A program made the translations under genes and the position numbers. Positions 37,002 through 53,744 of a stretch of DNA of 64,000 nucleotides are shown here, piece after piece. Below the pieces are notes generated by a model. The model searched no databases and was not told the DNA's origin. It saw nothing but the letters and a program-made list of their open reading frames with translations. Location of the stretch: the IMG/VR virus record IMGVR_UViG_3300021956_000013, positions 1,236 to 65,235 of that record, one strand, 5' to 3'. The stretch comes from a virus. Within the stretch, counting starts at the first letter, position 1. Every line of letters begins with the position of its first letter.

Positions 37002-37100
37002 ATGCCACAGATACAGGCTTTTGCTTGTAAGCGTTGCTCTACTATCGCAAGCGTATCGCTACTAGATAATAAACTAAAGATAAATAAATGTAATTGCTAA
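37002..37100 (+). CDS. Cys-rich micro-ORF, 32 aa
   Basis: MPQIQAFACKRC...KCNC. Confidence 0.5.
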   Translation: MPQIQAFACKRCSTIASVSLLDNKLKINKCNC

Positions 37101-37149
37101 GGTTGTGGGCGTGTCGCTATTGACATGCCCCAACTTTTGTGCCGACCCC

Positions 37150-37170
37150 TGTGGATAACTCTGTGGATAG
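37150..37170 (-). promoter_or_regulatory. Tandem DnaA boxes
   Basis: TGTGGATAA (reverse complement of TTATCCACA) at 37150 and TGTGGATAG at 37162. Confidence 0.6.
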
Positions 37171-37296
37171 TTGTTCATTTAGTTAATCTTTTAAGTTATT
37201 TGCAAAATGTTCGCAAACACGCTTATTTTGGCGTGTCAAATAGGGTCAAATGTCAGTGGTTAGGTATAGTCTAATAAAGTCAAAGAAAGGACAAAA

Positions 37297-37431
37297 ATGA
37301 AAGACAAAAAGACAGAACTAACCCAGATGTTAGCCAAGTATGCGAGAGCAGGAATACCCCTAACTAACGCTGAGAAAAACCTAATCAAGTATCTACTAGC
37401 CAAAGATAACAAAATGATAACGAATAAGTAA
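37297..37431 (+). CDS. Cassette ORF, 44 aa basic
   Basis: Motif promoter, GAAAGG RBS. Confidence 0.6.
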   Translation: MKDKKTELTQMLAKYARAGIPLTNAEKNLIKYLLAKDNKMITNK

Positions 37432-37525
37432 ATATTCGCAAAACTGAACATAATGGGCGTGTCAAAGGGTCTAAATGTCAGTGGTAGGGTATAGAGTAAT
37501 AATAGATAAAAGAAAGGCAAGTCAA

Positions 37526-37645
37526 ATGACTAACTACGAAATCAAAGCAAGATACAAAGAACTAATGCGTATCGCAGAAAGTGATGTAATGACAGCAAGC
37601 GAGTTTGATGAACTTATGGCAATGTTCGCAAAACTAAATAAATAA
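37526..37645 (+). CDS. Cassette ORF, 39 aa
   Basis: Motif promoter, GAAAGG RBS. Confidence 0.6.
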   Translation: MTNYEIKARYKELMRIAESDVMTASEFDELMAMFAKLNK

Positions 37646-37663
37646 AACTTAGTTTAGTTAGTG

Positions 37664-37706
37664 AGCCTGATTAGGTGAGCCTAGAAATAGCAAATAAACT
37701 AATCAG
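37664..37706 (+). ncRNA. Pseudoknot motif, variant copy
   Basis: gccTGATTAggt...aaacTAATCA; compensatory variant of the TGAGCA/TGCTCA pairing. Confidence 0.45.
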
Positions 37707-37773
37707 CAAATAAATAACTAAACAAAAACAAAACTAAATAAATAATAATCTACAAAAAAGAAATGAGAAATAA

Positions 37774-38184
37774 ATGAAAATAAAAACTTGGAAAGAAACC
37801 CAAATCCTTCTATCACTTAGCGACTATCGCAAGTTTTATGCGACTATCGCAGAACTGCCTAATGGTGAAAAGTCTATCGCTATCCATAACAAACTAATCA
37901 ACCTTAGCAATGTTTATCTAAACTATGACTATGAAAATGATACAATGCTATCTCAAAAAAATAGTGAGTGGAAATACTCTGCTGAACTAGATAGTTTTGC
38001 TACGAGTGAGTTTGTAAAAGTAAAAAACTTACTTGCTGAACTAAATGAGTTAGGCGTGAAAAGTTATTCTAACGAAATGCGTGTCAGTGATGGCGAAACT
38101 TATTTCTTAGCGTTTCTAAAAATGGAGTGCGTGTTGCGTTCTCGTGTGTTGCTTGCTCACTCTTATAGAGTAAAGCAACGCTAA
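37774..38184 (+). CDS. Hypothetical protein, 136 aa
   Basis: ORF with A-rich leader, followed by hairpin. Confidence 0.7.
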   Translation: MKIKTWKETQILLSLSDYRKFYATIAELPNGEKSIAIHNKLINLSNVYLNYDYENDTMLSQKNSEWKYSAELDSFATSEFVKVKNLLAELNELGVKSYSNEMRVSDGETYFLAFLKMECVLRSRVLLAHSYRVKQR

Positions 38185-38258
38185 AAATAAATTAGCAAAA
38201 AAAATAATTGTGTTAGTAAAAATAAAATTGCTAACGCAAAAATTTTTTGCCGACCGCC

Positions 38259-38272
38259 CGAACAAATGTTCG
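38259..38272. promoter_or_regulatory. SOS (LexA) box
   Basis: CGAAC-AAAT-GTTCG, matches the Gram-positive/actinobacterial CGAAC-N4-GTTCG consensus. Confidence 0.7.
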
Positions 38273-38329
38273 AATTAAGTGGAGCGTGTCGTTTCCCTAA
38301 ATGTCAGTGGTATGGTATAGGTTATAACT

Positions 38330-38476
38330 ATGAATAAATCAACTTGTTTCCTTTGCTCAGTCGCTACCCCTGCTCACCTTGTTGTTATTTCTAATGGCAA
38401 TGTGTTCCGTTCATGTGAGGCTTGCCTTGCTGGATACCCTGACCACCTAATCGAAACAACTATCGCTCTACCCTAA
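38330..38476 (+). CDS. Leaderless zinc-finger micro-ORF, 48 aa
   Basis: CFLC...CEAC; ATG about 6 nt after -10. Confidence 0.65.
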   Translation: MNKSTCFLCSVATPAHLVVISNGNVFRSCEACLAGYPDHLIETTIALP

Positions 38477-38490
38477 CGAAAGGTTCCACT

Positions 38491-38592
38491 ATGGAAAACT
38501 GCTGCTACTGCAACACTCCCTCTGTTCAAATCTGGGGGCAGGTCTGCTCAGATTGTGAGGACACCCTAGACTGGGGTGATGACGAAGACTAG
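38491..38592 (+). CDS. Zinc-finger acidic micro-ORF, 33 aa
   Basis: CCYC...CSDC, D-rich end; GAAAGG RBS. Confidence 0.6.
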   Translation: MENCCYCNTPSVQIWGQVCSDCEDTLDWGDDED

Positions 38593-38624
38593 ACTTGACA
38601 AAACACCCGAAAGGGTGCCGACCC

Positions 38625-38638
38625 CGAACAAATGTTCG
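38625..38638. promoter_or_regulatory. SOS (LexA) box
   Basis: Second identical CGAACAAATGTTCG. Confidence 0.7.
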
Positions 38639-38712
38639 ATTTACGTTGGGGGATTCTTTTCCCTAAATGTCAGTGGTAGGTGGTAGTGTATAACTATAAC
38701 GAAAGGAAGCCA

Positions 38713-38838
38713 ATGGAAATCATTCTCATTGAAGCAAGTTGCTCCAAATGCTGTGATTCACTGTTTTCAAGCAGCGAGCAAGAGTTCAAAACTCTACTAG
38801 ATAACCACGATTGCAAAACTGCGACCAGACCTTACTAG
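38713..38838 (+). CDS. CxxC...HxC mini-protein (family A)
   Basis: ASCSKCCDSLFSSSEQEFKTLLDNHDC. Confidence 0.65.
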   Translation: MEIILIEASCSKCCDSLFSSSEQEFKTLLDNHDCKTATRPY

Positions 38839-38891
38839 TCTGTGTCAGTGGTATCTGCTAAAATAAAACTAATCAAGAAAGGTAAAAACTA

Positions 38892-39041
38892 ATGGCAAAA
38901 ATGGCTGAACTATTCGAGGCAACTAACTATCCAGAGTTGGAGATTGCTGAGTGTGCTAAGTGTGGAACTGAAATCCTATTCGCAACTGAAACTGAGTTTG
39001 AGAAGTTGGTTGCTGAACACATACACACTTATCGCTGGTAG
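38892..39041 (+). CDS. CxxC...HxH mini-protein (family A)
   Basis: MAKMAELFEATN...AECAKCGTEILFATETEFEKLVAEHIH. Confidence 0.7.
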   Translation: MAKMAELFEATNYPELEIAECAKCGTEILFATETEFEKLVAEHIHTYRW

Positions 39042-39201
39042 GTGTGTCGCACTTGACAAAAGCCCTTCGGGGTGCCGACCGCAAAAATTTCCAAATGTCA
39101 ATACGACACGCCAAAAAATTTTCCAGAAATAAAGCGTGTCTAAATAATCAAATGTCAGTGGTCAGGTGTATAATAAAGGTATAAAGAAAAGGAAATAATA
39201 A

Positions 39202-39288
39202 ATGAGTGAAAAAGAAATGACACCAGAGCAGTTAGTAGCAGAGCAGGAATACCTTGCTTGGTTAGCAGAAGTTAGAAGACAAGGCTAA
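39202..39288 (+). CDS. Cassette micro-ORF, 28 aa
   Basis: Motif promoter and AAGGA RBS. Confidence 0.55.
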   Translation: MSEKEMTPEQLVAEQEYLAWLAEVRRQG

Positions 39289-39362
39289 CGCTCTGGCGTG
39301 TTTAACGCCTAATGTCAGTGGTATCCTGTAAAATAGAACTAATCAAAAGAAATGGAAAATAA

Positions 39363-39533
39363 ATGTTAGACAAGAACTCAAACATCTACCAAGTAGTAGA
39401 AGCCCTAAAAACTAAGAACTCAGTTTCTGCTGATGCTCCATACCCTTACCTGTCTGGTATGTGTTGGAGTTTGCTAAATGAAACTCAGCGTAAAAAGTTG
39501 ATAGAAATGGTAAATAAGATGGAGAATAAATAA
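39363..39533 (+). CDS. Cassette ORF, 56 aa
   Basis: Motif promoter; translationally coupled to next ORF. Confidence 0.65.
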   Translation: MLDKNSNIYQVVEALKTKNSVSADAPYPYLSGMCWSLLNETQRKKLIEMVNKMENK

Positions 39534-39629
39534 ATGGAAGACTGGAAACTCGCATTAGCAGAAATCCAAAAGTCAATGAGAGAAGACTTTATTTCTCAAA
39601 TCAAAACTAATGAACAGGAAAATAAATAA
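39534..39629 (+). CDS. Micro-ORF, 31 aa
   Basis: TAAATG coupling; GGAG RBS. Confidence 0.55.
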   Translation: MEDWKLALAEIQKSMREDFISQIKTNEQENK

Positions 39630-39835
39630 TGGTAAAAGTTGCTCTAGTAATCTCAACACTAATCTTAGGTGTATTCAGTTTTGTAATCGCTGACGCTTAT
39701 AGATACACTTCACTAATCAATGACCAAGAGAGTTATAAAGTATTCTCTGGTCAATGGGCGTTAGTTGGTGTTCAGTTTGTAGTTGGTTCTCTAATCTTGG
39801 CGTTGATGTTCATAATCAAATCACGCAAGAAATAA
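39629..39835 (+). CDS. Two-TM membrane protein
   Basis: Two hydrophobic helices, basic tail. Confidence 0.7.
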   Translation: MVKVALVISTLILGVFSFVIADAYRYTSLINDQESYKVFSGQWALVGVQFVVGSLILALMFIIKSRKK

Positions 39836-39890
39836 AAAAATAATCTTGTGGGTGTGTCGCTTGACATACCCCAAGATTTTTGCCGACCCC

Positions 39891-39899
39891 TGTGGATAA
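39891..39899 (-). promoter_or_regulatory. DnaA box
   Basis: TGTGGATAA within GCCGACCCCTGTGGATAAC, identical to 37141-37159. Confidence 0.6.
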
Positions 39900-39999
39900 C
39901 TTATAACGATTTGGTTACGAGAGTTAAGAAACACCCCCTAAATCCCCTAAATGTCAGTGGTATCCCCTATAATAGAAACATAACAAGAAAGGCTAACTA

Positions 40000-40152
40000 A
40001 TGAACTTACCAACCAAACTACACAAGAACCCTAGCAAGAGATACACCCTATTTGAATACACCATAAATGGCTCAACAGTTGTATCTGCTATTCATTTCTA
40101 CGACTTGCTCCCATTTCTAGCAGAACACCCAGAAGCCAAGCGTGTCCGCTAG
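40000..40152 (+). CDS. Cassette ORF, 50 aa
   Basis: Motif promoter, GAAAGG RBS. Confidence 0.65.
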   Translation: MNLPTKLHKNPSKRYTLFEYTINGSTVVSAIHFYDLLPFLAEHPEAKRVR

Positions 40153-40206
40153 GCTAAATGTCAGTGGTGCCCTGTATAATTGAACTAACTAAGAAAGGTA
40201 AAACTA

Positions 40207-40353
40207 ATGGCTAAAATGGCAGAACTATTTGAAGAGACTAACAGCATTATTTTTGATGTTGCTGAATGTGCAGAGTGTGGAGTTGAAATTGAATTCTCTA
40301 CTGATAAAGAATTTGCTGAATTGGTAAATGGACACGTTTGTGTCCGCTACTGA
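40207..40353 (+). CDS. CxxC...HxC mini-protein (family A)
   Basis: MAKMAELFEETN...AECAECGVEIEFSTDKEFAELVNGHVC; paralog of 38892. Confidence 0.7.
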   Translation: MAKMAELFEETNSIIFDVAECAECGVEIEFSTDKEFAELVNGHVCVRY

Positions 40354-40405
40354 TGTCAGTGGTCAGTTGTATAATTGAAATACCTAAAAGAAATGGAAAA
40401 ATAAA

Positions 40406-40594
40406 ATGGATAATATGGACAAGTTCTATGAACAGCGTGAGCAAGATTTCTGGACTTACTGGAACAAGGTAAAGGCTTATGCTGATGAAGCCAACACTGA
40501 TATTTATCAGGTTGTCAATTTTAGACAAATCTTTGACCAAGCCTATACGCTAGGTGCATTGCAAACACACAAGAAAGAAGATAATAATGAGTGA
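40406..40594 (+). CDS. Cassette ORF, 62 aa
   Basis: Motif promoter. Confidence 0.7.
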   Translation: MDNMDKFYEQREQDFWTYWNKVKAYADEANTDIYQVVNFRQIFDQAYTLGALQTHKKEDNNE

Positions 40595-40685
40595 AGAAGA
40601 AATAATAATTCTTGATAAACTAATTGACCACTTCAATTTTTTTGAAAAACTAATCGCTGAAAATAAAGAACAGGAAAAAAACTAA
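40587..40685 (+). CDS. Micro-ORF, 32 aa
   Basis: Overlap-coupled to neighbours. Confidence 0.5.
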   Translation: MSEEEIIILDKLIDHFNFFEKLIAENKEQEKN

Positions 40686-40885
40686 TGGACATCTATGAAA
40701 AATTTACTCAAGAAGAATTAGAGCAGATGCATGATGAAATGCTGGATGAAACTTATCCACCATACAGAATTGGATACACAGATTTTTATCCATCACAAAT
40801 TTTAGCAAACTGCGACCCAATCATGTATCAAATTTCTGTTCAAGAGTATGCAGACTTTTTGCAAGAGCAGGAAAATGAAGAATGA
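40685..40885 (+). CDS. Acidic phage hypothetical protein
   Basis: DEMLDETYP...PSQILANCDPI. Confidence 0.7.
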   Translation: MDIYEKFTQEELEQMHDEMLDETYPPYRIGYTDFYPSQILANCDPIMYQISVQEYADFLQEQENEE

Positions 40886-40941
40886 TTGCTCTGGGAATAA
40901 TTTTAACAGTTTTAGTGTTTATATATTTAGTAAATCAATAA
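40882..40941 (+). CDS. TM micropeptide, 19 aa
   Basis: MIALGIILTVLVFIYLVNQ; ATGA overlap. Confidence 0.5.
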   Translation: MIALGIILTVLVFIYLVNQ

Positions 40942-41067
40942 ATAAAATTGGTGGTGTGTCTTCTTGACATGCCACCTTTTTTGTGCCGACCGCCCCTGGC
41001 GTGTCGTGTATTAAGTGCTGATGTCAGTAGTCCCCTGTATAATTATTTTATCTAAGAAAGGCTAACT

Positions 41068-41181
41068 ATGGAAGAAAAGACCACCTGCGATTTCTGTTCT
41101 AATGAATGGATTGGCTATGTCCAAATTGGAAATGACTTACCTTGGGTATGCGAAACACACTGGGAAATGTACGCTAAGTAA
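41068..41181 (+). CDS. Zinc-finger micro-ORF, 37 aa
   Basis: CDFC...CETH. Confidence 0.65.
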   Translation: MEEKTTCDFCSNEWIGYVQIGNDLPWVCETHWEMYAK

Positions 41182-41233
41182 ATGTCAGTGGCTACCTGTA
41201 TAATTATTCTATCAACCAAGAAAGGCACTAACT

Positions 41234-41512
41234 ATGGCAGTATTCAATTTCATTTCTGATGATTCACACGGATGGATGGAAGTTTCTCTAATCGAATTCC
41301 CTGAAGCAATAAACTACGCATCAGGTTTTGGCTACATCAACGGAAATACTATTTATCTTGAAGAAGATGATGAGGCTGAAAACTTTATCTACCACCTGAG
41401 AAGTCAGGGTGAGCCTATCACTTTCGCTGAGAAAATCTATGACGGACAGTGGTATGGCAGAGCGTATGCTCGCAATGTCAGGGGTATGCACTATAATCAA
41501 ACTACTAACTAA
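41234..41512 (+). CDS. Hypothetical protein, 92 aa
   Basis: FISDDSHGW...IYLEED; 3' end contains next promoter motif. Confidence 0.7.
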   Translation: MAVFNFISDDSHGWMEVSLIEFPEAINYASGFGYINGNTIYLEEDDEAENFIYHLRSQGEPITFAEKIYDGQWYGRAYARNVRGMHYNQTTN

Positions 41513-41523
41513 GAAAGGCAACT

Positions 41524-41637
41524 ATGCTACTATACAGTGATGACTATGAGCCAGACAACTATGAGGGAGACCAAGACCTCAATGAGTATGAGGATGACTG
41601 GTCAACTGTTGAGAGCGAACTCTTCGGAGATTGCTAA
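41524..41637 (+). CDS. Very acidic micro-ORF, 37 aa
   Basis: SDDYEPDNYEGDQDLNEYEDDW; GAAAGG RBS. Confidence 0.6.
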   Translation: MLLYSDDYEPDNYEGDQDLNEYEDDWSTVESELFGDC

Positions 41638-41769
41638 CTCAGCACCCTTCGGGGTGCCGACCACGACACGCCCGAAAAACATTTAAGATAAAAAAAGATT
41701 TTCCCCATTTCCTATTGCCAAATGTCAGTGGTATCGCTTATAATAGAAGTATCAAGAAAGGAAAAACTA

Positions 41770-41925
41770 ATGAAAACTATTTGCGTATTTTGTCTAGAAG
41801 TCTATGGGGAAGACGCTATTGGTTGCTGGTCTTGTAATGAATACAAGGGCATAATGCCACTAAACGAAGAAACACTAAACTACTTAGGCGAAGACCTAGA
41901 AGACTGGGCAGAATACCTAGTCTAA
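41770..41925 (+). CDS. Zinc-finger acidic protein, 51 aa
   Basis: CVFC...CWSC. Confidence 0.7.
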   Translation: MKTICVFCLEVYGEDAIGCWSCNEYKGIMPLNEETLNYLGEDLEDWAEYLV

Positions 41926-41964
41926 TGTCAGTGGTCGCTGGTAAAATAATAACATCAACAAGAA

Positions 41965-42177
41965 ATGGAAAATAAAATGGAAAATGAAAAAAAGAGATAC
42001 ACCTTTGGTGGCTTCACATTTGGCACTAACAACCTGTTCAACCTAACTATCCTAGTTCGCAACCACGCTGGACACGGAACTAGCAACTCTGTTGAACTTG
42101 GACTAGAACTAAATACTGCTGAAATCCAAGAACTAATCACTGTTCTACTAACTAGAAATGTAAAGGAAGATAACTAA
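41965..42177 (+). CDS. Cassette ORF, 70 aa
   Basis: Motif promoter. Confidence 0.65.
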   Translation: MENKMENEKKRYTFGGFTFGTNNLFNLTILVRNHAGHGTSNSVELGLELNTAEIQELITVLLTRNVKEDN

Positions 42178-42368
42178 TGATGACACGCAAGGACTATGTT
42201 AGCACTGCTGAGATTTTGGCAGACTATCGCAGAGATTTTTACTCTACCCCCGAAACTGCTGACAGTTTTGAAGCAATGGTAAATGACTTTGCTCAAATGT
42301 TCGCAGATGACAACGAGAGATTTATGCGTTCTAAGTTTATTGACGCTTGCTTAGGAGAGGATTTCTAA
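42177..42368 (+). CDS. Hypothetical protein, 63 aa
   Basis: MTRKDY...AQMFADDNERFMRSKFIDAC, a common phage small-protein pattern. Confidence 0.75.
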   Translation: MMTRKDYVSTAEILADYRRDFYSTPETADSFEAMVNDFAQMFADDNERFMRSKFIDACLGEDF

Positions 42369-42521
42369 ATGGAAATTGTATTCGCAATACTTGGAGTTAT
42401 TCTAGTTGGTTATTTATTCTGGCAGAGTTATTTGCTTGCTAATTATTCTAAAATTATAGATAACCAAAAAGATGTTATCGCTAAGTTGGCTAGAGAGATA
42501 GACACACTAAAACCTTTTTAG
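42369..42521 (+). CDS. TM plus coiled-coil protein, 50 aa
   Basis: Hydrophobic N-terminus; GGAGAGG RBS. Confidence 0.6.
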   Translation: MEIVFAILGVILVGYLFWQSYLLANYSKIIDNQKDVIAKLAREIDTLKPF

Positions 42522-42648
42522 TTTTCTCAATCGCTACCCTTCGGGGTGGCGATTTGGGTCGGCAGCCCAAGGTTACATCTAGGTTACGATAATTAAGAAA
42601 CACACCCAAAATCTCCACGATGTCAGTGGTATTGTGTATAATAGGACT

Positions 42649-42819
42649 ATGAAGAAAAGAAAGCCACCACTAAATAAAGTTGCTCAGGCAACTCGCAACG
42701 CACACTCAGCAGAACTTTTTAGAAGTCTGTTACTAAACAAGCACCTAGTCGCTACCCCTGCCAAGCGTAAGGGTTCTCGCAAGGCTAACATCATCAAGGC
42801 TATCAAGGAGTATAACTAA
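42649..42819 (+). CDS. Leaderless basic protein, 56 aa
   Basis: K/R-rich; ATG about 6 nt after TATAAT. Confidence 0.65.
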   Translation: MKKRKPPLNKVAQATRNAHSAELFRSLLLNKHLVATPAKRKGSRKANIIKAIKEYN

Positions 42820-43115
42820 TGGCTAAATCAAATAAAGTAAATCTAATGGACATAACAGACCTGCCACTAGAAGAACAAATCTATCAAATCCTAAGAGGTA
42901 GAGGTTTCCACACTAGGTTTGTAGGTATAGACCTAAGAGAGTTAGCAGAGGAAATAGTTTTTACTCTTGACTTTGTAAATGGAGATAATCCTGACCAGCC
43001 TATTATCCTGAATACCCTGCCAGAAATAACAGGTGAAGACGGAGTTCCAGCACTAGACCTAATCAAGCGTTTTGGTTTAGATGACTATGTTATGGAGAGT
43101 GTCCTAAATGGATAA
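42819..43115 (+). CDS. Hypothetical protein
   Basis: AAGGAG RBS, coupled start. Confidence 0.7.
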   Translation: MAKSNKVNLMDITDLPLEEQIYQILRGRGFHTRFVGIDLRELAEEIVFTLDFVNGDNPDQPIILNTLPEITGEDGVPALDLIKRFGLDDYVMESVLNG

Positions 43116-43470
43116 GAAAACTATTATTGAAAAATACAACATTGACCCTAATCAAACCCTAGATGTCTTCTATGACAATGGCGAGGTATGGTGTAGTGAA
43201 GATGGTGAGTGGTCAGTATTTCATTGTGGAGAAATGAGAGTTGACTACAATGGCGAAAGACTATACACAAACACGGACTTTATCAAAGTTGGTTTAGATA
43301 CAGATGACAAAGTTGGTGAAGCAGAGGCTAACGAAGAACTCTATTGGCACATGAACCCATGGTTTATTGTTGCTAAAAAAGATGACCTAGATAATGAGTA
43401 TGGAATTACAGGCAACATCATTGATGCAATACAGCAAGCCCTAGTTTTAGCCAATGTCAGTGGTCAGTAG
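43108..43470 (+). CDS. Acidic hypothetical protein
   Basis: 120 aa; ends NVSGQ, encoded by the promoter motif. Confidence 0.7.
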   Translation: MDKKTIIEKYNIDPNQTLDVFYDNGEVWCSEDGEWSVFHCGEMRVDYNGERLYTNTDFIKVGLDTDDKVGEAEANEELYWHMNPWFIVAKKDDLDNEYGITGNIIDAIQQALVLANVSGQ

Positions 43471-43501
43471 TATAATTATCTTATCAAACAAAGGAGAGTA
43501 A

Positions 43502-43633
43502 ATGGAAAACGAAGACAAAGAATACTTCAAGGAAATGTTTGAGCAGTATCACAATGGTGAAATAGATGTTTTTGAACTAATGGATAATCTTGAAACTGAT
43601 AGATTTGATGGAGATGTTTTTGATTACCTGTAA
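43502..43633 (+). CDS. Acidic micro-ORF, 43 aa
   Basis: AAGGAG RBS. Confidence 0.65.
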   Translation: MENEDKEYFKEMFEQYHNGEIDVFELMDNLETDRFDGDVFDYL

Positions 43634-43708
43634 CTAGGTACCCTTCGGGGTCGGCACAATGTCAGTGGTCGTATGTATAATAGACTTACGAAAGAAAGAG
43701 GAAACCCC

Positions 43709-43843
43709 ATGAATGTATCAGTAGAAAAACTAATTGAGATGAAGGTATTGCGAGAGTCTATGTTTGGCTCTGGAGATTGGTATGTAATCTATACCGAAGA
43801 TGGACCTAAAGATGTATCCCTTGCTACCCTGACAAGTGAGTAA
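43709..43843 (+). CDS. Cassette ORF, 44 aa
   Basis: Motif promoter; stop abuts next motif. Confidence 0.65.
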   Translation: MNVSVEKLIEMKVLRESMFGSGDWYVIYTEDGPKDVSLATLTSE

Positions 43844-43892
43844 TGTCAGTGGTTGCCTGTAAAATAGAACTATCAAAAGAAAAGGGAAACTA

Positions 43893-44090: not shown

Positions 44091-44119
44091 AATAGAACTA
44101 TCAAAAGAAAAGGAAAAAA

Positions 44120-44404: not shown

Positions 44405-44434
44405 AATAGTATTATCAAAAGAAAAGGAAAACTA

Positions 44435-46833: not shown

Positions 46834-46876
46834 TGTCAGTGGTAGGGTTTATAATAGAACTAACGAAAGGAAACAA

Positions 46877-46978
46877 ATGATAAACTTTGACAATGTTATC
46901 AACGAAGAAGCAATCGAAAAACTAACAGATGAGCAAGCAGAAGCCTTATTGGCTATTTTAGAGAAAGCAGGATACTAA
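46877..46978 (+). CDS. Micro-ORF, 33 aa
   Basis: FDNVINEEAIEKLTDEQAEALLAIL; GAAAGG RBS. Confidence 0.65.
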   Translation: MINFDNVINEEAIEKLTDEQAEALLAILEKAGY

Positions 46979-47178
46979 TGCCTAAATACGCATTCAACTT
47001 TTGGGAAGAAAGCAAATGGGCTATCACCTTTGAAGCAGACAACCTAGACCACGCTAAGAAACTATTGGCAGAAGCAGAAGAAGAAATGGACTTAGATTGG
47101 TTGCCTGAAATGGAACGCTTTTTCAAAAAGGGTGATGAAACTTGGGACAGCGAAACACTAGCAGAAGTGGAGAACTAA
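46978..47178 (+). CDS. DpnD/PcfM-like acidic protein
   Basis: YAFNF...ITFEADNLDHAKKL pattern. Confidence 0.55.
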   Translation: MPKYAFNFWEESKWAITFEADNLDHAKKLLAEAEEEMDLDWLPEMERFFKKGDETWDSETLAEVEN

Positions 47179-47339
47179 TGGAACTAGCACAAGCATACGA
47201 AATAGTATTAGCAGACTTAGAAGAAAGAAATAGTCATACCATAGGTAGATTGCTTCACTGGGACTGGACAGGTCAAAATGAAGAACTTATGTATAGGGCT
47301 TGGTTGGTTGCTAAAACTTTTATTGAGCAGAACGAATAG
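47178..47339 (+). CDS. Hypothetical protein
   Basis: Coupled start MELAQAYE. Confidence 0.6.
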   Translation: MELAQAYEIVLADLEERNSHTIGRLLHWDWTGQNEELMYRAWLVAKTFIEQNE

Positions 47340-47409
47340 CACTACCCTTCGGGGTCGGCAGCCAAAAATAACAGAATGATAACGCTTTACGAAATCTTTT
47401 ACGAAACCC

Positions 47410-47438
47410 TTGACTTTTCCCCCATTTTCCCTTATACT
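47410..47438 (+). promoter_or_regulatory. Canonical sigma-A-type promoter
   Basis: TTGACT-17-TATACT. Confidence 0.7.
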
Positions 47439-47487
47439 TGTAGTATCAACAAAAGTTGAGAAAAACTACAAGTAGAAAGAAGCAAAA

Positions 47488-47646
47488 ATGGCAAACACAT
47501 TTACCATTCCATCTGTTGGCTCACAGTTCGCAACCCAGAAGTCTGGCGTTGTTGGCACAGTTCAGGAAGTAATCAAGAACGCAAATGGTTCATTCCGTAT
47601 CAAACTTGATGTTGCTGGACAGCCACGCTGGACAACTGCTAAGTAA
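47488..47646 (+). CDS. Small beta-barrel (SH3/KOW-like) protein, 52 aa
   Basis: PSVGSQFATQKSGVVGTVQEVIKNANGSFRIKLDV; biased codons. Confidence 0.75.
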   Translation: MANTFTIPSVGSQFATQKSGVVGTVQEVIKNANGSFRIKLDVAGQPRWTTAK

Positions 47647-47661
47647 GTCCTAGAAATAGGG

Positions 47662-47695
47662 CAGACCTGAGCAAGTCTGGCAAAAAAACTGCTCA
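47662..47695 (+). ncRNA. H-type pseudoknot motif
   Basis: CAGAC-c-TGAGCA-a-GTCTG-gcaaaaaaac-TGCTCA. Confidence 0.55.
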
Positions 47696-47701
47696 ACCCT
47701 A

Positions 47702-47730
47702 TTGACAAATCCCTTATCAACCTGTATAAT
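47702..47730 (+). promoter_or_regulatory. Consensus sigma-A-type promoter
   Basis: TTGACA-17-TATAAT. Confidence 0.8.
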
Positions 47731-47768
47731 TGTATTATACAAATAACCCTAATAGAAAGTAGAAAATA

Positions 47769-48209
47769 ATGGCAAGAGCCTTATCAGTAAAAGTTCCAAC
47801 ATCAAGTCTAATCGCTTTGTTGGAAGACAAAATCGCAACAATCCAAACTGCTATCGCAGATTATCCAAGAGCAAAGGCTCAATACAAGGAAGATGTAAAG
47901 GCATACAAGAAGTCTGTCCTAAACCTTGCCCTATCCAAGATTGCTTCTAACCCAGAAGTCTTGTTTGATAACGATAGCCTAGATGTTAGCACATCTTATC
48001 GCAATGATGTCCAAATCACTTTGGATAAGGACTTGTTTGAGTTGCCAGAAATGCCAGAGCAACCAGAAGACCCAAATCGTAAAGAGTGGATTGGCAGAGA
48101 CCACACAACTAAGTTGTCTGTTTTAGAGAAAACTCTGGCTGTTCTAAAACTAACAAATCAGGAAGAAGTAAGTGCTTCCACATACAACTCTGTAATGGAG
48201 TTGCTATAA
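47769..48209 (+). CDS. Hypothetical protein, 146 aa
   Basis: Consensus promoter; ALSVKVPT...LKLTNQEEVSASTYNSV. Confidence 0.8.
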   Translation: MARALSVKVPTSSLIALLEDKIATIQTAIADYPRAKAQYKEDVKAYKKSVLNLALSKIASNPEVLFDNDSLDVSTSYRNDVQITLDKDLFELPEMPEQPEDPNRKEWIGRDHTTKLSVLEKTLAVLKLTNQEEVSASTYNSVMELL

Positions 48210-48228
48210 ACCATAGGCTTACGCCTAA

Positions 48229-48256
48229 ACACCTAAGCAAGTGTCTAAACTGCTTA
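48229..48256 (+). ncRNA. H-type pseudoknot motif
   Basis: ACAC-c-TAAGCA-a-GTGT-ctaaac-TGCTTA. Confidence 0.55.
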
Positions 48257-48264
48257 TCTCTAAC

Positions 48265-48555
48265 AAGGTTGTTTAGTTTGGGTTCAATTCCCAAATAGAG
48301 AACAAACAAGCGAATGACGATTTGCTTGGAGTATGGCTGAACGAAGTTCTTTGTCTAGGAGGAACGAGAAAGGCACAGCGTGGGTTTAGCGACCCCAACT
48401 TAGCGGTTGAAAGCGTTGGTAGGATGATGGCGGTACTATAAGAGACTCCCAGACTACTCCTTGGTGGTAATAGACAATCCACCTACTCACACACTTCCCC
48501 CTGTGAAGATTGACTATCCTAATTAGATAGGTAAAATTAGCAGGGGGATTTTTTG
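48265..48555 (+). ncRNA. Candidate structured ncRNA with T-loop
   Basis: About 290 nt with no credible ORF; TTGGG-TTCAATT-CCCAA T-arm-like hairpin; ends at tccccctg/caggggga hairpin plus T-run. Confidence 0.35.
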
Positions 48556-48609
48556 TGCCGACCCCCATAACGTTTTGGTAACACTAGTAAAATTGTTTTA
48601 CGAAACACT

Positions 48610-48638
48610 TGACAAATCCCCGAAATAATGGGATAATT
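48610..48638 (+). promoter_or_regulatory. Sigma-A-type promoter
   Basis: TTGACA-17-GATAAT. Confidence 0.65.
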
Positions 48639-48679
48639 GAGTATCAAATAAATCCATTTATCACGAAAGGTGTCCATTT

Positions 48680-49693
48680 ATGGCTCACGAATTAGAAATC
48701 AACGAAGCAACAGGCGAAGCGTCTTTTGCTTCCCTACGCCAACCTGCTTGGCACAATCTTGGAACTGTGTTTCAGGAAGAAGTATCAACTGCTAAGATGT
48801 TGGAATTAGCAAAACTAGACAATTGGAATGTTCGTCTTGAAGATGTGGTTGTCCCTGCTGGTTTTACTAGCGACAGAAACTACTCATTCGTATCTCGCAC
48901 AAATCCATTCAACGCAGAACAAACAGACATTCTTGGTGTCGTTGGTGAGCGTTATGTTCCACTACAAAATGAAGACTTGTTTTCATTTGGCGATAACTTG
49001 CTAGATGGTGGTGGGCGTTGGGAAACTGCTGGTTCAATCAAGGGTGGCAGACAAGTTTTCGGTTCTATCGCATTAGAGCGTGAAACTGTCCTTGACCCTA
49101 ATGGCGTGTCTGATGTTGTCAAGTCATACCTGCTACTAAACACAAGCCACGATGGAAGTATCGCTATCCAAGCGTCTATTACTCCTGTTCGTGTAGTTTG
49201 TGCTAACACTCTAAACCTTGCTCTATCTTCTCTAAAAGGTAAAAAGGGTATCAAACAAACTTTCAAGATTAGACACACACAAACAGCAGAAGGTAAAATC
49301 GCTGTTGCTCGTGAAGCGTTGGGTCTTGCTAATCACTACTTAGACGAGTTTGATTTACTTGCTAAGGAAATGATTGCTAAGGAAATCACACAGGCTAAGT
49401 TTGATGAGATTGTTCTAAAAGCGTATCCAATGCCAACTAAGGACAGCAAGGGTTCTATGAAGAAGTGGTCAGATAAGATTGACCTTATTCAATCTATCTA
49501 TGTTGGCGATTACAACAACACAATTTCAGGAACTGCTTGGGGTGCTTTGAACGCATTGACAGAACGCCTAGATTGGTATCGCAACTCTCGTGGTTCAAAC
49601 AACGAAAGCATTTACGCAAGTGCTTCTGGTTTTGACCCTGTAATCAACGCAGAGAAAAATCGTTTGATGAACTTGGTTTTGGCAAGCGTATAA
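48680..49693 (+). CDS. DUF932 / TIGR03299 phage-plasmid protein
   Basis: MAHELE...PAWHNLG, GVVGERYVPLQN, ETAGSIKGGRQVF, SHDGS, TPVRVVCANTL, GTAWGALNA. Confidence 0.9.
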   Translation: MAHELEINEATGEASFASLRQPAWHNLGTVFQEEVSTAKMLELAKLDNWNVRLEDVVVPAGFTSDRNYSFVSRTNPFNAEQTDILGVVGERYVPLQNEDLFSFGDNLLDGGGRWETAGSIKGGRQVFGSIALERETVLDPNGVSDVVKSYLLLNTSHDGSIAIQASITPVRVVCANTLNLALSSLKGKKGIKQTFKIRHTQTAEGKIAVAREALGLANHYLDEFDLLAKEMIAKEITQAKFDEIVLKAYPMPTKDSKGSMKKWSDKIDLIQSIYVGDYNNTISGTAWGALNALTERLDWYRNSRGSNNESIYASASGFDPVINAEKNRLMNLVLASV

Positions 49694-49699
49694 TCTCGC

Positions 49700-49727
49700 A
49701 GACCTGAGCAAGTCTAAAAACTGCTTA
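49700..49727 (+). ncRNA. H-type pseudoknot motif
   Basis: AGAC-c-TGAGCA-a-GTCT-aaaaac-TGCTTA, 6 nt after stop. Confidence 0.55.
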
Positions 49728-49862
49728 CCAATTTCTCACTTGACAAAGTGCGAAATTTGGGTCGGCAATTTCTAACTAGTTAATCATTTATGTTGATTAC
49801 GAAATGGTTAAGATTTCCCTAAAACTATTGCATTTGTCAGTGGTCATCTGTATAATTGACTT

Positions 49863-50171
49863 ATGAATGAAAACGAAACTATTATCCTTACCCCTGTTTA
49901 TGACGAAGACAACGCACCTTACATCTACCCTGACGCAGATGACTTACAATCCTATCAAAGATTACAGTTTATCGTGTGGGGGCTAGAAAGCCTAGAAAAG
50001 CAACTATGGAACTCTGCTGAACGAGGCTGGCACGACACCAGTGGTCCCGAATTCCAATCATTCCTAAAGATGATTAGGGGTATCTACAACGAGAAGACTG
50101 ATAGCCTTACTAAGTATAACTTTGTAATCCTAGAAGACGAGATGTTAGAGCAAGCATCACAGATGTTCTAA
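49863..50171 (+). CDS. Leaderless hypothetical protein
   Basis: ATG about 6 nt after TATAAT; stop abuts next motif. Confidence 0.7.
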   Translation: MNENETIILTPVYDEDNAPYIYPDADDLQSYQRLQFIVWGLESLEKQLWNSAERGWHDTSGPEFQSFLKMIRGIYNEKTDSLTKYNFVILEDEMLEQASQMF

Positions 50172-50220
50172 TGTCAGTGGTATCCCCTATAATAAGAACC
50201 TAACAGAAAGAGAAAACCCT

Positions 50221-50457
50221 ATGAGAAAATACTATGTAGAAATCCAAGTAAATTACTGTGGAGAGATTGAAGCAAATAGCGAAGCAGAAGCAGAGCAGTT
50301 GGCTTGGTCTTCCTACTATGGTGATAACGCTACTCTTGAATACGACAGCGTTGAAGACATTAGAGTAGAAGAATTGCCACATTGCGAAGATTGCGACAAT
50401 CCAGAAGACGAATGTGAATGCGAAGATGAAGAAGAAGTAGAAGAAGATAATGAGTGA
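50221..50457 (+). CDS. DpnD/PcfM-like very acidic protein
   Basis: YYVEIQVNYCGEIEANSEAEAEQLA; CEDCDNPEDECECEDEEE tail. Confidence 0.7.
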   Translation: MRKYYVEIQVNYCGEIEANSEAEAEQLAWSSYYGDNATLEYDSVEDIRVEELPHCEDCDNPEDECECEDEEEVEEDNE

Positions 50458-50782
50458 TTGTGAATGCGACAAAGTAGAGTGTCCAAAACACGAAGGTAGT
50501 TTTGACTGCCACTCGTTTTGTGAAATCTGCGAAGGTAATCAAGATTACTGCCCTACCCACGATGAATGGGAAGCAACAAAAGCCAAAGCCTATTTAGAAG
50601 AGAAAGAAGTAGATGTGAATAAAACTATGCTTGAAGAACACAAAGAAGAACTAGCAATACTAGAAAACGAACTACACACAAAGTCATTGAGCAAGTATGC
50701 GATTGCGTGTATTGAAGGTCGCATTAGCGATTTGGATAGTATGATTGCTCAGGACGAATACTGGGAGAAAAAGAATGCTTGA
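50450..50782 (+). CDS. Cys-rich acidic protein
   Basis: CPKHEGSFDCHSFCEICEG. Confidence 0.7.
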   Translation: MSDCECDKVECPKHEGSFDCHSFCEICEGNQDYCPTHDEWEATKAKAYLEEKEVDVNKTMLEEHKEELAILENELHTKSLSKYAIACIEGRISDLDSMIAQDEYWEKKNA

Positions 50783-51047
50783 ACTAACTGACGAACACTA
50801 CGAAACTAAGAGAATGGTTTCAGCAACAATTACATACCTGATTGATGTCAATAAAGATAACATCTTCATCAGCGAAGTAGAAGACTTTGATACCGAAGAC
50901 GGAACCGAAGAAGACTACGAAGAGTTGAAGCGAACTGACGAAGAGTTGGAGCGTTCAGCAATCAACGAATTAGCAGAAATCATTTATAATTCTGTCAAGT
51001 ATAATGACCTAACTGAGATGATTAGTGTGGAGTTCCATAATGTCTGA
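50775..51047 (+). CDS. Acidic hypothetical protein
   Basis: Start re-called at MLELTD. Confidence 0.65.
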   Translation: MLELTDEHYETKRMVSATITYLIDVNKDNIFISEVEDFDTEDGTEEDYEELKRTDEELERSAINELAEIIYNSVKYNDLTEMISVEFHNV

Positions 51048-51219
51048 GATGACTGATAAAGAAATCGTCCTGTCTATGATTGATGGCTTCAAGAAAGTCA
51101 AGGGTATAAATCAAATGCCTACTCTAGAAGTATTGAAACTAATAGAGATGAGACTAACAAGGTCAGATGAACTGGATGAGTTTGTTAGAATTGGTAAAGA
51201 AGTTTTGGCTGACATATAG
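51040..51219 (+). CDS. Hypothetical protein
   Basis: GGAG RBS, overlap coupling. Confidence 0.6.
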   Translation: MSEMTDKEIVLSMIDGFKKVKGINQMPTLEVLKLIEMRLTRSDELDEFVRIGKEVLADI

Positions 51220-51462
51220 GGATAATGGGGACCAGGGTGGTTGGAGCAATCTGACTGCCCTGGTTTTGTGCCGACCAACTTTACATAATAATATAACTAA
51301 ACATCAAACATCATTACGATATCATAACAATTTTCCCAAAACATTATGTAAACTAATAGTCAGCCTGGTTGATTACGAAATGGTAACATTTTCCCCGAAA
51401 TGCTTGTATGTTCGCTGCATTTGCTGTATCATAGATATATAACGAGAGAAAGAGCAAACCCT

Positions 51463-52011
51463 ATGCATACAATGCAATATGTAGCGACACTAGTAGAACT
51501 AGATGAGCCTACTGATTTAGATGAAGTAAGAGCAATTGCTAAAGCCCAAGTAGGTGACTGGCTAAATGAATGGTCTGATGAGAATGGCTTTGTTGGTGGC
51601 TGGTCTGATTGGTCTATGGTTGGTGGTAGGTGGGATGAAGTTCCTGTTCTAGTATATACTGATGAGAATGCTTGTGAGTTTTTAGAAGCATTAGATATGG
51701 TAGATTTATCACAAAGGTCAATCTTCAATGAATACCTTGCTGAGTTTGATTATCCTACTATTCATACACTAATGACCAAGTATGGTGCAGGTGAAGAAGT
51801 AAATAACAAAGACATCTATGAAGCCAATGTATATAGTTTGTATCAGGCATTGAGAATACTAAAAGGCTATTGGTCTTATGATAGTAAGTTCTTTGATTCA
51901 ATCAACGATACCCCCCAAACATCGTATCTAAGAAAAAACTTGCTAGAGACTATTGACAATCCAGACCCTTTGGTGCTATACTGTTTAGTACCAGTAGATT
52001 TCCATTTCTAA
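51463..52011 (+). CDS. Acidic hypothetical protein
   Basis: WSDWSMVGGRW...VPVDFHF. Confidence 0.75.
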   Translation: MHTMQYVATLVELDEPTDLDEVRAIAKAQVGDWLNEWSDENGFVGGWSDWSMVGGRWDEVPVLVYTDENACEFLEALDMVDLSQRSIFNEYLAEFDYPTIHTLMTKYGAGEEVNNKDIYEANVYSLYQALRILKGYWSYDSKFFDSINDTPQTSYLRKNLLETIDNPDPLVLYCLVPVDFHF

Positions 52012-52028
52012 GAGAGAGAGTAAACCCT

Positions 52029-52211
52029 ATGGAAAAAGTAACAGCAAAAATCCGTTTCTGGTATTCTACCGAAGTTGATATTGAAGTAGAAGACCCTAAC
52101 GATGAAGATGAAATCCAAAGTAAAGCAGAAGACTACGCAGGTGAATTTGCTGTGTGGGATGGTAACAAGTCTTGGCGTACTGACTTTGATGACTGTGAGA
52201 TTGAGTTCTAA
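52029..52211 (+). CDS. DpnD/PcfM-like acidic protein
   Basis: TEVDIEVEDPNDEDEIQSKAEDYA. Confidence 0.6.
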   Translation: MEKVTAKIRFWYSTEVDIEVEDPNDEDEIQSKAEDYAGEFAVWDGNKSWRTDFDDCEIEF

Positions 52212-52573
52212 TGAGTGAAATGACCTATGAAGAGTGGGAAGTCAAATATAAACCTATCCCTAATCATATAACTGGTGAGTGTTGCTCTTTTGAGACATAT
52301 GGTGATGAACTTGCCTTTGTATGCTCACAAGACCCTAATACTATCTGGACTGAAATGGATGGCGATAACGGTGTCTATCTTGTTAGTGGCTATCACTATG
52401 TAAATCGTATTCAATACTACATTACTGAAATACCATGGCAGGAAGACGATGACATCTGTATTACCATTTGTGAGTTTGTCACATGCTCCTGCTATAATGA
52501 AGAAACAGATGAAGCAAATGAGAATTGCGACCAATGTGGTGGCGATGGAACCTATACAGATTGGAACTACTAA
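52211..52573 (+). CDS. Acidic protein with C-terminal zinc ribbon
   Basis: FETYGDELAFV...GYHYVNRIQYYITEIPW; CDQCGGDG. Confidence 0.75.
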   Translation: MSEMTYEEWEVKYKPIPNHITGECCSFETYGDELAFVCSQDPNTIWTEMDGDNGVYLVSGYHYVNRIQYYITEIPWQEDDDICITICEFVTCSCYNEETDEANENCDQCGGDGTYTDWNY

Positions 52574-52740
52574 TGGAAGATAAGATTAATAAGTATAACA
52601 ACAACCCTGATTATGATGCAGGATACCAAGAAGGCTGGGAGAATGCAATCAACTATGTGCTTGACATTTCACAGCAAATGCGGTATACTGATGCTTTCAA
52701 AGGACCTACACTAGAAGAATTGGAGCAAAGAATAGTATGA
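52573..52740 (+). CDS. Hypothetical protein
   Basis: YDAGYQEGWENA; TAATG coupling. Confidence 0.65.
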   Translation: MEDKINKYNNNPDYDAGYQEGWENAINYVLDISQQMRYTDAFKGPTLEELEQRIV

Positions 52741-53144
52741 TTTTATGGGACCTGAACGTTTGGTATAAAGAAGACGTTGTAAATGATGAAGTAGTAGTAG
52801 AAGATACAATCACTATTAATCCTGCTATATATATTGCAGATGATATTGATGACGTGTATGGTGGTGTTCGAAAAGTCTATACAGGAATCCTTTATAAGAC
52901 TAATAGTGAAGAGACTGCAAAGATTCGTGAGCATCGCAGTGAGATTGAATATGGCACTGACTGGTTTGACTTTGCGGACGAACTGTATACATTAGATATC
53001 AGTCAGGGTATCCAGGGATTCATTGACTCACTAGGAGACCCTACTACCATCCCTATCCATGACGTAGATGATTTGTATCACATTGATAGTATTAATAAAC
53101 TTGATGGGTTGAGAACACTCCCTGTCAACAGTCAGAGCAGTTAG
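52737..53144 (+). CDS. Acidic hypothetical protein
   Basis: ATGA overlap, 135 aa. Confidence 0.7.
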   Translation: MILWDLNVWYKEDVVNDEVVVEDTITINPAIYIADDIDDVYGGVRKVYTGILYKTNSEETAKIREHRSEIEYGTDWFDFADELYTLDISQGIQGFIDSLGDPTTIPIHDVDDLYHIDSINKLDGLRTLPVNSQSS

Positions 53145-53235
53145 GGGTTTCTGTGTCTGACTACCGTGGGGAAGCATAGGTAATTGCTACTTGTGCTTCC
53201 CCTATATTTTTGGTATAATAGAATATTGGAGTAAT

Positions 53236-53430
53236 ATGAGAAGAAAAGTAATAACCAACGAAGAAAAAGCAGTAATCAAACTAACAAACATATTAGCAGA
53301 CCTACGACTAAATCTAGAAGATGTGGGTTATCATCTTGCTTTTACAAGTGATTTGATGTATAATAGATTACAAGTTATTTATGAAACAGCAACAGCAGAA
53401 AAGGAAAATCGCAATGGCAACAACATTTGA
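53236..53430 (+). CDS. Leaderless hypothetical protein
   Basis: TGGTATAAT promoter upstream; ADLRLNLEDVGYHL. Confidence 0.65.
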   Translation: MRRKVITNEEKAVIKLTNILADLRLNLEDVGYHLAFTSDLMYNRLQVIYETATAEKENRNGNNI

Positions 53431-53674
53431 GAACAAAGCATTTATTCTATCTACACTTTGGATGGAGTATCGCAATGACCAAAACTTCCAAGACTTTATT
53501 GAATACAATGACTTAGGCTTGCCATTAGCGTATGCCTTAGATAGTGGTATGATTGATAAGAACGATAAGATTGTTCCACTAATTGACGAAGCATTTGACC
53601 TATTGCTAAATGGTTTAGATTTAGAAGACACTGGCTTTGATGACCTAGACGAATTGCTTTCAAAAGAAAACTAA
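53414..53674 (+). CDS. Acidic hypothetical protein
   Basis: ILSTLWMEYRND...NDLGLPLAY. Confidence 0.75.
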   Translation: MATTFENKAFILSTLWMEYRNDQNFQDFIEYNDLGLPLAYALDSGMIDKNDKIVPLIDEAFDLLLNGLDLEDTGFDDLDELLSKEN

Positions 53675-53744
53675 TGCAGGATTGCCCTTGACAAAGGGGC
53701 TATCTTGTGCCGACCAAAGTTACCAAATTGTAATAAAACTCCTA

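Follow-up and report, generated by a model that had tools for sequence, protein, structure and literature searches.

The stretch described here (64,000 nucleotides, below called the window) comprises bases 1236-65235 of a single 70,937-base linear virus record, IMG/VR IMGVR_UViG_3300021956_000013, which has 36.8% G+C, is about 70% complete and represents an uncultured freshwater siphovirus of Actinomycetota. Its 36-54 kb portion is an early array of some 50 genes, small and for the most part orphans, in which 16 transcription units start with a composite region, here termed a head, that consists of a hairpin, an exact 8-mer (the tag, TGCCGACC), boxes and a promoter. On balance these heads are probably terminator/promoter cassette junctions akin to the promoter-early stem-loop (PeSL) cassettes of T4-type phages, combining a lineage tag for a phage protein with host-regulator operators and PafBC-dependent early promoters.

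In the mechanism proposed for such a junction, an RNA hairpin terminates the upstream unit and the exact 8-bp tag stands directly behind it in either orientation. One or two putative operators come next, matching sites for DnaA, LexA or an MtrA-type regulator, or in the form of a (C)GACACGCC box that contains the WhiA motif GACAC, and then a promoter, mostly one that matches the hybrid type which actinobacterial RNA polymerase-SigA reads only with PafBC, a sensor of single-stranded DNA (ssDNA). Early transcription would be switched on via host PafBC and tuned unit by unit by host regulators, with the tag as the recognition site of a lineage-specific, phage-encoded protein, possibly an insulating or boundary-marking binder or an enzyme. 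That the promoters depend on PafBC, that host regulators occupy the boxes, and that a protein reads the tag, in whatever role, are predictions; what the sequences show, as set out below, is the anatomy with its statistics and conservation, the exclusivity of the tags to lineages, the reassortment at them and the consensus matches.

An exact tag at the operon heads

The first-pass annotation of the window had described a hairpin followed by GCCGACC at 16 operon heads, and both parts are borne out. GCCGACC has 16 matches (12 on the + strand, 4 on the - strand), all within 37141-53715, against 0.84 +/- 0.90 in shuffled sequences with a maximum of 4, and a hairpin stands before it in 16/16. Every one of these copies extends to the 8-mer TGCCGACC, perfect in either orientation; no copy with one mismatch occurs at any head of the window, and the 8-mer is absent from the rest of the 70.9 kb genome outside the early array. 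In all 16 heads the hairpin reaches at most 4 nt into the 8-mer and stops at most 7 nt short of it, and the 48 nt upstream of the tag have a mean folding energy of -16.3 kcal/mol, compared with -6.2 in windows drawn at random from this region. Several head stems contain G-U pairs that form only in the + strand RNA, which indicates that the stems are transcript structures, i.e., terminators.

The hairpin stands at a fixed distance from the tag, whereas 3 to 103 nt separate the tag from the promoter, and the tag is thus part of the junction and not of the promoter. The strong terminator at 53168-53202, which has no promoter behind it, and 18 headless promoters have no tag; the tag marks the point at which a terminator meets a regulatory region.

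One terminator family, seen at 37107-37130, 39850-39871 and 40950-40976, has a conserved stem top in which a GTGTC arm faces, across a short loop, a GACAT arm with TT before it (TTGACAT); what look like a GTGTC box and a TTGACA hexamer at these places are accounted for as the two arms of an RNA stem.

Lineage-specific tags and reassortment

The same 8-mer recurs at the same place in seven related contigs, where it again follows a hairpin or T-run, may point either way and is restricted to early arrays, a confinement recorded for the window and five related contigs; about 69/69 tag copies in related contigs are exact, with roughly 43 on the + and 26 on the - strand over the TGCCGACC contigs. 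Other relatives that share the architecture carry a different 8-mer at this position, namely GCCCGAGC in the contig behind IMG/VR locus L057, CGCACGCC in L021 and in a metagenome contig matching window position 42554, and TGCGCCCC in L104 and L063. Scans of whole contigs found the four 8-mers to be mutually exclusive, and all four have 75-88% G+C in genomes of 37-41% G+C.

The exchange of one tag for another takes place within flanks that are otherwise shared. The head at 48556 and its counterpart in the L057 contig have a near-identical upstream hairpin and a homologous downstream part with different 8-mers between them, and three TGCCGACC contigs likewise have head flanks homologous to those of L104 around a different 8-mer. 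The 110 nt upstream of the head at 46188 are 95% identical to the L057 contig up to the T-run, after which the tag differs; past its tag, the L057 contig continues with the downstream part of the head at 47353, which amounts to the insertion or deletion of a 1.16 kb cassette between two tags. Furthermore, one metagenome contig ends exactly at 41662, the end of a tag. A clustering of 79 heads, by 50 nt on the upstream and 60 nt on the downstream side, showed that the terminator family with the GTGTC...GACAT stem can be followed by DnaA boxes, by LexA boxes, by the GGCGTGTCG box or by MtrA-type repeats, and several other hairpin families had two or three downstream partners each. The parts can be called swappable because the box type behind one and the same hairpin changes from phage to phage, as the first-pass annotation had expected of the boxes, and the modules reassort at the tag because it is the only sequence common to all heads of a genome. 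The tag is the breakpoint of module exchange.

A PafBC-type promoter array

The most over-represented words of the genome are ATGTCAGTGGT and not the tag. The pattern TGTCAG-N10-TAnnnT is present in 30 copies, against 0.84 expected, all of them on the + strand between 36273 and 50193, and no variant with an N9 or N11 spacer was found. The consensus of this array, which is of the PafBC or RecA-NDp type, is AA-TGTCAGTGGT-N6-TATAAT, and the start codon lies mostly 23-32 nt past the -10 element. The hexamer TGTCAG, with its invariant GTC triplet, is present in 30/30 copies, and upstream of it there is no consensus beyond AA and no -35 element. The published consensus of PafBC-dependent promoters is tGTCgg(N10)tA(N3)T, in which the hexamer is a -26 element that is contacted by PafB and replaces the -35 element, a mode of activation known as "sigma adaptation" (PMC8635444); to be active, PafBC must have ssDNA bound to its WYL domains (PMC11804915). 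At the level of sequence, the TGTCAG promoters match this actinobacterial consensus, and one host input, an ssDNA or DNA-damage activator, would be common to most units, given that their promoters are of the PafBC type.

It had been proposed that a TGTCAG-type or TTGACA promoter follows each head, which holds for most: behind the 16 heads are 12 promoters of the form TGTCAG-N10-TAnnnT, 3 of the form TTGAC-N17-(T/G)AnnnT and 1 ambiguous case, at 51269. The headless copies (18/30) immediately follow the stop codon of the gene before them, and heads thus mark only a subset of the units.

Two genomes whose PstS (phosphate-binding protein) is closest to that of the phage served as candidate hosts. 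Both have tandem PafB/PafC genes with WYL and WCX domains, one gene of the pair with HTH_PafC, together with TGTCGGTGG-N7-TAnnnT sites in small number; in the roughly 70% of the phage genome that is available, a WYL gene was not found. The promoter is widespread among phages, since 94 of 119 IMG/VR loci fetched by one promoter match have at least 3 on one strand, the totals being 770 for the major and 8 for the minor strand. Its presence in many unrelated phage contigs makes a shared host factor the simplest reading. No paper was found on a phage early programme that runs via PafBC.

Variants of the array were also seen. IMG/VR locus L067 has seven copies of GTCAGACCC-N6-TA(c/t)AAT in place of TGTCAGTGGT, which may be a diverged -26 element. 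The loci L030, L085, L107 and L062 represent a second phage group with a TGTCAG-type promoter and different heads, made up of a GCCCGCA(A/G)...GCGGGG hairpin, two DnaA boxes split by TTACGG, TGGAA and a GTGA...TCAC palindrome, with 4-5 repeats per locus. In the 36-54 kb portion of the window, a TTTCCCC-N1-3-AAA word recurs at many promoters, just upstream of the -26 element or within the -35/-10 spacers.

Host-regulator look-alike boxes

The boxes between tag and promoter are good candidates for host-regulator sites, as far as consensus matches can tell. The DnaA and LexA boxes were found where the first-pass annotation had placed them: perfect DnaA 9-mers at 37150 and 39891, each 2 nt past the tag, and, starting 1-3 nt past the tag at 38259 and 38625, two CGAAC-N4-GTTCG palindromes that have no further copy in the genome. 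The latter agree with the actinobacterial LexA consensus tCGAAC-N4-GNNCGa (PMC9380542) as 16-bp palindromes at 38258-38273 and 38624-38639. RTWAC-N6-RTWAC has 10 forward matches in the genome, 5 of which start no more than 15 nt after an 8-mer, although this zone covers just 0.36% of the sequence. The site of Corynebacterium MtrA, an OmpR-type regulator, (A/G)TAACAATttn(A/G)TAACAAT, is an 8-bp direct repeat with a 3-bp linker (PMC3353115), and RTAAC cores at an 11-bp period occur in 5-6 heads, with the full MtrA 8-mer matched only partly. Lack of conservation in relatives had been named as part of the grounds for rejecting the boxes; relatives keep the boxes, including the RTAAC cores, and the linkers between the repeats vary.

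The proposed GACAC/GTGTC boxes are present as well, and belong to a longer conserved phage word, (C)GACACGCC; GACAC, the WhiA motif (PMC10243135), which is asymmetric and in WhiA sites lies on either strand upstream of the promoter, also forms the stem of one terminator family. Six -26 elements have the longer word some 13-18 nt before them, and it shows enrichment in many further phage contigs that carry the TGTCAG promoter. In both candidate host genomes (L142/L143), GACACGCC precedes a degenerate SOS-like box in front of recA by about 40 nt, and CGACACGCC is hardly enriched in these genomes.

Numbered along the window and all read on the + strand, the heads differ in their boxes. Two carry DnaA boxes. 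Head 1 (37099-37272) has a hairpin at 37099-37137, the tag at 37140-37147 (+), DnaA boxes at 37150 and 37162, GGCGTGTC at 37230 and a PafBC-type promoter at 37251-37272, and head 5 (39842-39973) a hairpin at 39842-39878, the tag at 39881-39888 (+), a DnaA box at 39891, ATAAC-N6-GTTAC at 39903 and a TGTCAG promoter at 39952-39973. The LexA boxes belong to head 2 (38200-38323), with its hairpin at 38200-38247, tag at 38248-38255 (+), LexA box at 38259-38272, GCGTGTC at 38284 and TGTCAG promoter at 38302-38323, and to head 3 (38604-38689), where a GAAA-loop hairpin precedes the tag at 38616-38623 (+), the LexA box at 38625-38638 and the TGTCAG promoter at 38668-38689. In head 4 (39063-39174) a TTCG-loop hairpin and the tag at 39073-39080 (+) are followed by GACACGCC at 39105, GCGTGTC at 39134 and a TGTCAG promoter at 39153-39174. 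Head 6 (40943-41043) combines a hairpin at 40943-40983, the tag at 40984-40991 (+), GGCGTGTCG at 40998 and a TGTCAG promoter at 41022-41043, and head 7 (41645-41744) a TTCG-loop hairpin, the tag at 41655-41662 (+), CGACACGCC at 41664 and a TGTCAG promoter at 41723-41744.

RTWAC-type repeats are found in the heads farther along. Head 8 (42529-42642) has a hairpin at 42529-42554, an inverted tag (GGTCGGCA) at 42557-42564, GTTAC-N6-GTTAC at 42572 and a TGTCAG promoter at 42621-42642; head 10 (45050-45162) has a hairpin at 45050-45077, the tag at 45079-45086 (+), a GTAAC-N6-ATAAA repeat at 45093 and a TGTCAG promoter at 45141-45162. ATAAC-N6-ATAAC occurs at 46200 in head 11 (46158-46260; hairpin 46158-46180 and T-run, tag 46188-46195 (+), TGTCAG promoter 46239-46260) and at 47368 in head 12 (47333-47438), which has a TTCG-loop hairpin, an inverted tag at 47353-47360, TTACGAAA repeats and a -35/-10 type promoter at 47410-47438. 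Promoters of that type also close head 13 (48496-48637), where a long hairpin at 48496-48548 with a T-run, the tag at 48556-48563 (+) and ATAAC-N6-GTAAC at 48567 precede the promoter at 48609-48637 of a DUF932 gene, and head 16 (53677-53773), with its hairpin at 53677-53707, tag at 53708-53715 (+), GTTAC-N6-GTAAT at 53719 and a consensus -35/-10 promoter at 53745-53773 that points toward a cluster of DnaA boxes. Head 9 (43625-43681) has no box; its TTCG-loop hairpin overlaps the inverted tag at 43649-43656, and the TGTCAG promoter at 43660-43681 begins 3 nt past the tag. Head 14 (49730-49856) has a hairpin at 49730-49757, an inverted tag at 49760-49767, no clear box and a TGTCAG promoter at 49835-49856, and head 15 (51228-51276) a hairpin at 51228-51267, the tag at 51269-51276 (+) and no clear promoter. 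The cluster beyond head 16 and its -35/-10 promoter consists of five perfect DnaA boxes (one +, four -) at 54016-54351, directly downstream, and is a candidate DnaA-dependent phage origin.

Likeness to known systems

The PeSL cassettes of T4-type phages (PMC2839356, PMC4122927) are likewise terminator/promoter composites between small, variable early genes, and likewise serve as exchange points, with insertions and deletions bounded by the cassette, as is seen here. Unlike the sigma-70 early type of PeSL, the heads have a PafBC-type promoter, a stretch of host-factor boxes between hairpin and promoter, and an exact lineage 8-mer at the junction, and they belong to a siphovirus with an actinobacterial host. 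PeSL cassettes are exchanged by homologous recombination over the conserved promoter and stem-loop; the hairpins here differ between heads, and only the 8-mer and the promoter farther on are shared. Compared with the PafBC regulon and RecA-NDp promoters of mycobacteria (PMC8635444, PMC11804915, PMC5656591), the array has the same hexamer with a GTC triplet, the same N10 spacer and canonical -10 element, and the same lack of a -35; it differs in being phage-borne, in its 30 tandem copies before tiny orphan genes and in a tighter consensus, with PafBC dependence being predicted.

For a tag-reading phage protein, the closest precedent by analogy would be the stoperator system of Cluster A mycobacteriophages, also actinophages, which has many dispersed, asymmetric intergenic sites with a genome- or lineage-specific motif, each genome's motif being matched to its own repressor (PMC6550527, PMC9283540). 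Stoperators are degenerate 13-bp sites spread over the whole genome, mostly with a single orientation relative to transcription, whereas the tags are 8 bp, perfect, confined to the early array and found in both orientations (12 + and 4 - in the window, about 43 + and 26 - in the TGCCGACC contigs), and no cognate repressor was found in the roughly 70% of the genome available. An integron-type cassette array is not indicated either, as no recombinase was seen and the tags occur in both orientations without inverted cassettes.

A further likeness concerns short exact marks. The genomes of phage T5 and of phiKMV-like phages carry site-specific nicks, which are such marks, made by the phage at a few to a dozen places; the known phage nick sites lie on one strand only.

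What might read the tag

Several candidates for the tag were set aside. As an element of a host regulon it is ruled out, being lineage-specific and not enriched in the two candidate host genomes (31 vs 26 control matches in one, 25 vs 26 in the other), and as a promoter element it is unlikely, given the varying distance to the promoter and the inverted copies. A TTGACA-N15-tag promoter for a sigma factor of the extracytoplasmic function type does not fit, as the tag inverts and many heads have no TTGACA; neither does a hairpin and tag composite read in ssDNA (HUH or integron type), as inverted copies place the tag on the other side of the hairpin; and a Chi-like site is at odds with the intermixed orientations and the lack of host enrichment.

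It is also unlikely that the tag has no reader and is a recombination linker, a microhomology for terminator/promoter exchange among recombining phages of one population, as in T4-type PeSL cassettes. The reassortment of modules exactly at the tag, the cassette insertion or deletion bounded by two tags, the metagenome contigs that break at it and its restriction to terminator/regulatory-region junctions would all suit a linker. However, 8 bases are very short for homologous exchange; the inverted tags (about 26/69) should give inversions, yet no inverted cassette was seen and the promoters keep their strand at 770 vs 8; and a linker leaves unexplained why one perfect 8-mer is kept throughout a genome while near-identical flanks in another lineage have a different one. 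Very improbable is a G+C-rich clamp that, set downstream of the terminator, slows RNA polymerase and raises termination, its exact sequence being immaterial. Such a clamp would account for the position of the tag 0-7 nt past the hairpin or T-run in all heads, for the high G+C of all four tags and for their freedom of orientation, but it needs neither identity in every copy nor the set-wise exchange between lineages, and the strong terminator at 53168-53202 has no tag. With the host element, the promoter element, the ssDNA composite, the clamp and the linker each excluded, unlikely or falling short, a lineage-specific phage protein that reads the 8-mer is the remaining option.

What kind of protein this might be bears on a further explanation, in which the tag is the site of a lineage-specific phage enzyme that nicks or modifies DNA, and single-strand breaks in the virion DNA at the heads, comparable to the site-specific nicks of T5, would yield after injection the ssDNA that activates the PafBC promoters nearby. 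The all-or-none exactness of the tag (16/16 in the window and about 69/69 in related contigs) suits an enzyme site, be it for a nickase or a methylase, no less well than an operator, and perhaps better; both orientations are allowed, tags are restricted to the array that holds the PafBC-type promoters, their specificity differs by lineage as that of restriction-type enzymes does, and ssDNA is the sole activator of PafBC (PMC11804915). This explanation is nevertheless distinctly unlikely: no nuclease or methylase domain was found in the roughly 70% of the genome available, and the tag is present at heads with ordinary promoters too. The fuller version, by which the 8-mers are programmed nick or ssDNA-exposing sites in virion DNA that on injection would feed PafBC beside the 30 promoters as a lineage-private code, must be held quite doubtful.

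Turning to the promoters, it is unlikely as well that a phage-encoded factor reads them and that their likeness to PafBC promoters is mimicry or coincidence. About 30% of the genome is unseen, the phage motif TGTCAGTGGT is more uniform than the host sites, and the phage encodes a WhiB-like sigma-binding protein, all of which would leave room for such a factor; against this, the match spans the hexamer, the exact N10 and the -10 element (PMC8635444), the motif occurs in many unrelated phage contigs, pointing to a common host factor, and a phage WYL gene was not found in the part of the genome available. The model of the first-pass annotation, in which GCCGACC is the common element of a host-state sensing or decoy panel with a different host sensor for each unit, is improbable as a whole. 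Its box types are real, differ among heads, are conserved and match published consensus sites; its shared docking element for host factors did not survive, since the tag is lineage-specific, is replaced by three other 8-mers and is absent from any host regulon. In addition, a PafBC-type promoter would give most units one common input, many units are headless, and the box positions are atypical for repression. The notion of a "host-state sensing panel" is, on these sequence comparisons, partly supported.

The reading favoured here, a PeSL-like junction with a tag for a phage protein, host operators and PafBC-dependent promoters, has several points to its disadvantage. No phage protein was found to track the tag type, in partial contigs and about 70% of the genome. 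Pfam or PHROGs searches on about 35 proteins from the array and both arms returned no DNA-binding protein, nuclease or methylase; a helix-turn-helix-like open reading frame at 35668-35850, considered as the tag reader, is conserved across lineages whose tags differ, and a literature search by the letters of the motif returned only primer sequences. For a transcription factor, an 8-bp site with no imperfect copy is unusual, and the tag also precedes 3-4 heads with ordinary -35/-10 promoters. The centre of the LexA box lies about 65 nt upstream of the predicted start, neither adjoining nor overlapping the promoter, which is not a classical position for a repressor, and the DnaA boxes are still farther upstream. 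The recA genes of the two candidate hosts have no PafBC-type motif within 250 nt upstream, so that the PafBC regulon of these hosts is weakly documented, and the host itself is one that we infer.

The phage and its probable host

The host is most likely a streamlined freshwater actinobacterium, to judge from the WhiB gene, the identity of PstS, the likeness of the capsid protein to those of Streptomyces phages and the freshwater origin of the public runs that contain the sequence, all of these being freshwater metagenomes. The best clue is the PstS gene (window 56162-57184), an auxiliary metabolic gene whose product is 70% identical to proteins of Rhodoluna sp. and of Micrococcales metagenome-assembled genomes (46% G+C). 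The WhiB-family gene (PF02467, E = 4.7e-11) lies outside the window on the - strand, at genome positions 68693-68983 (L162:5694-5984), and has a ferritin/Dps-like gene, an HSP20 gene and an M23 peptidase gene as neighbours in the right arm; a tRNA-Thr stands at the extreme end of the contig. The left arm encodes a portal, a protease, a capsid protein, about 41% identical to its Streptomyces phage counterparts, and a ribonucleotide reductase. A search of 8 kb for near-identity to GenBank phages gave no match. The tape measure protein has 3,122 residues (window 4002-13370, - strand), implying a very long tail, and two proteins, of 1,025 residues (23210-26287) and 227 residues (57987-58670), are hypervariable, being only 25-28% identical even to their counterparts in close relatives.

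Implications

The cassette principle is already known from PeSL; new in comparison are the promoter class, the inserted host-factor operators and the lineage tag. Taken together, the arrangement suggests exchangeable early-gene cassettes wired to host signals, and the heads display what appears to be a natural shuffling of DnaA, LexA and MtrA-type operators between cassettes. An exact 8-mer that is exclusive to a lineage and sits at terminator/promoter junctions means that many cis sites change in concert, which points to an undiscovered sequence-reading phage protein. Were the nick explanation true, the phage would trigger the DNA-damage activator of its host only for itself, by a lineage-private code. 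More broadly, with arrays in 94 of the 119 contigs, a large group of uncultured freshwater actinophages may start its early programme via PafBC "sigma adaptation".

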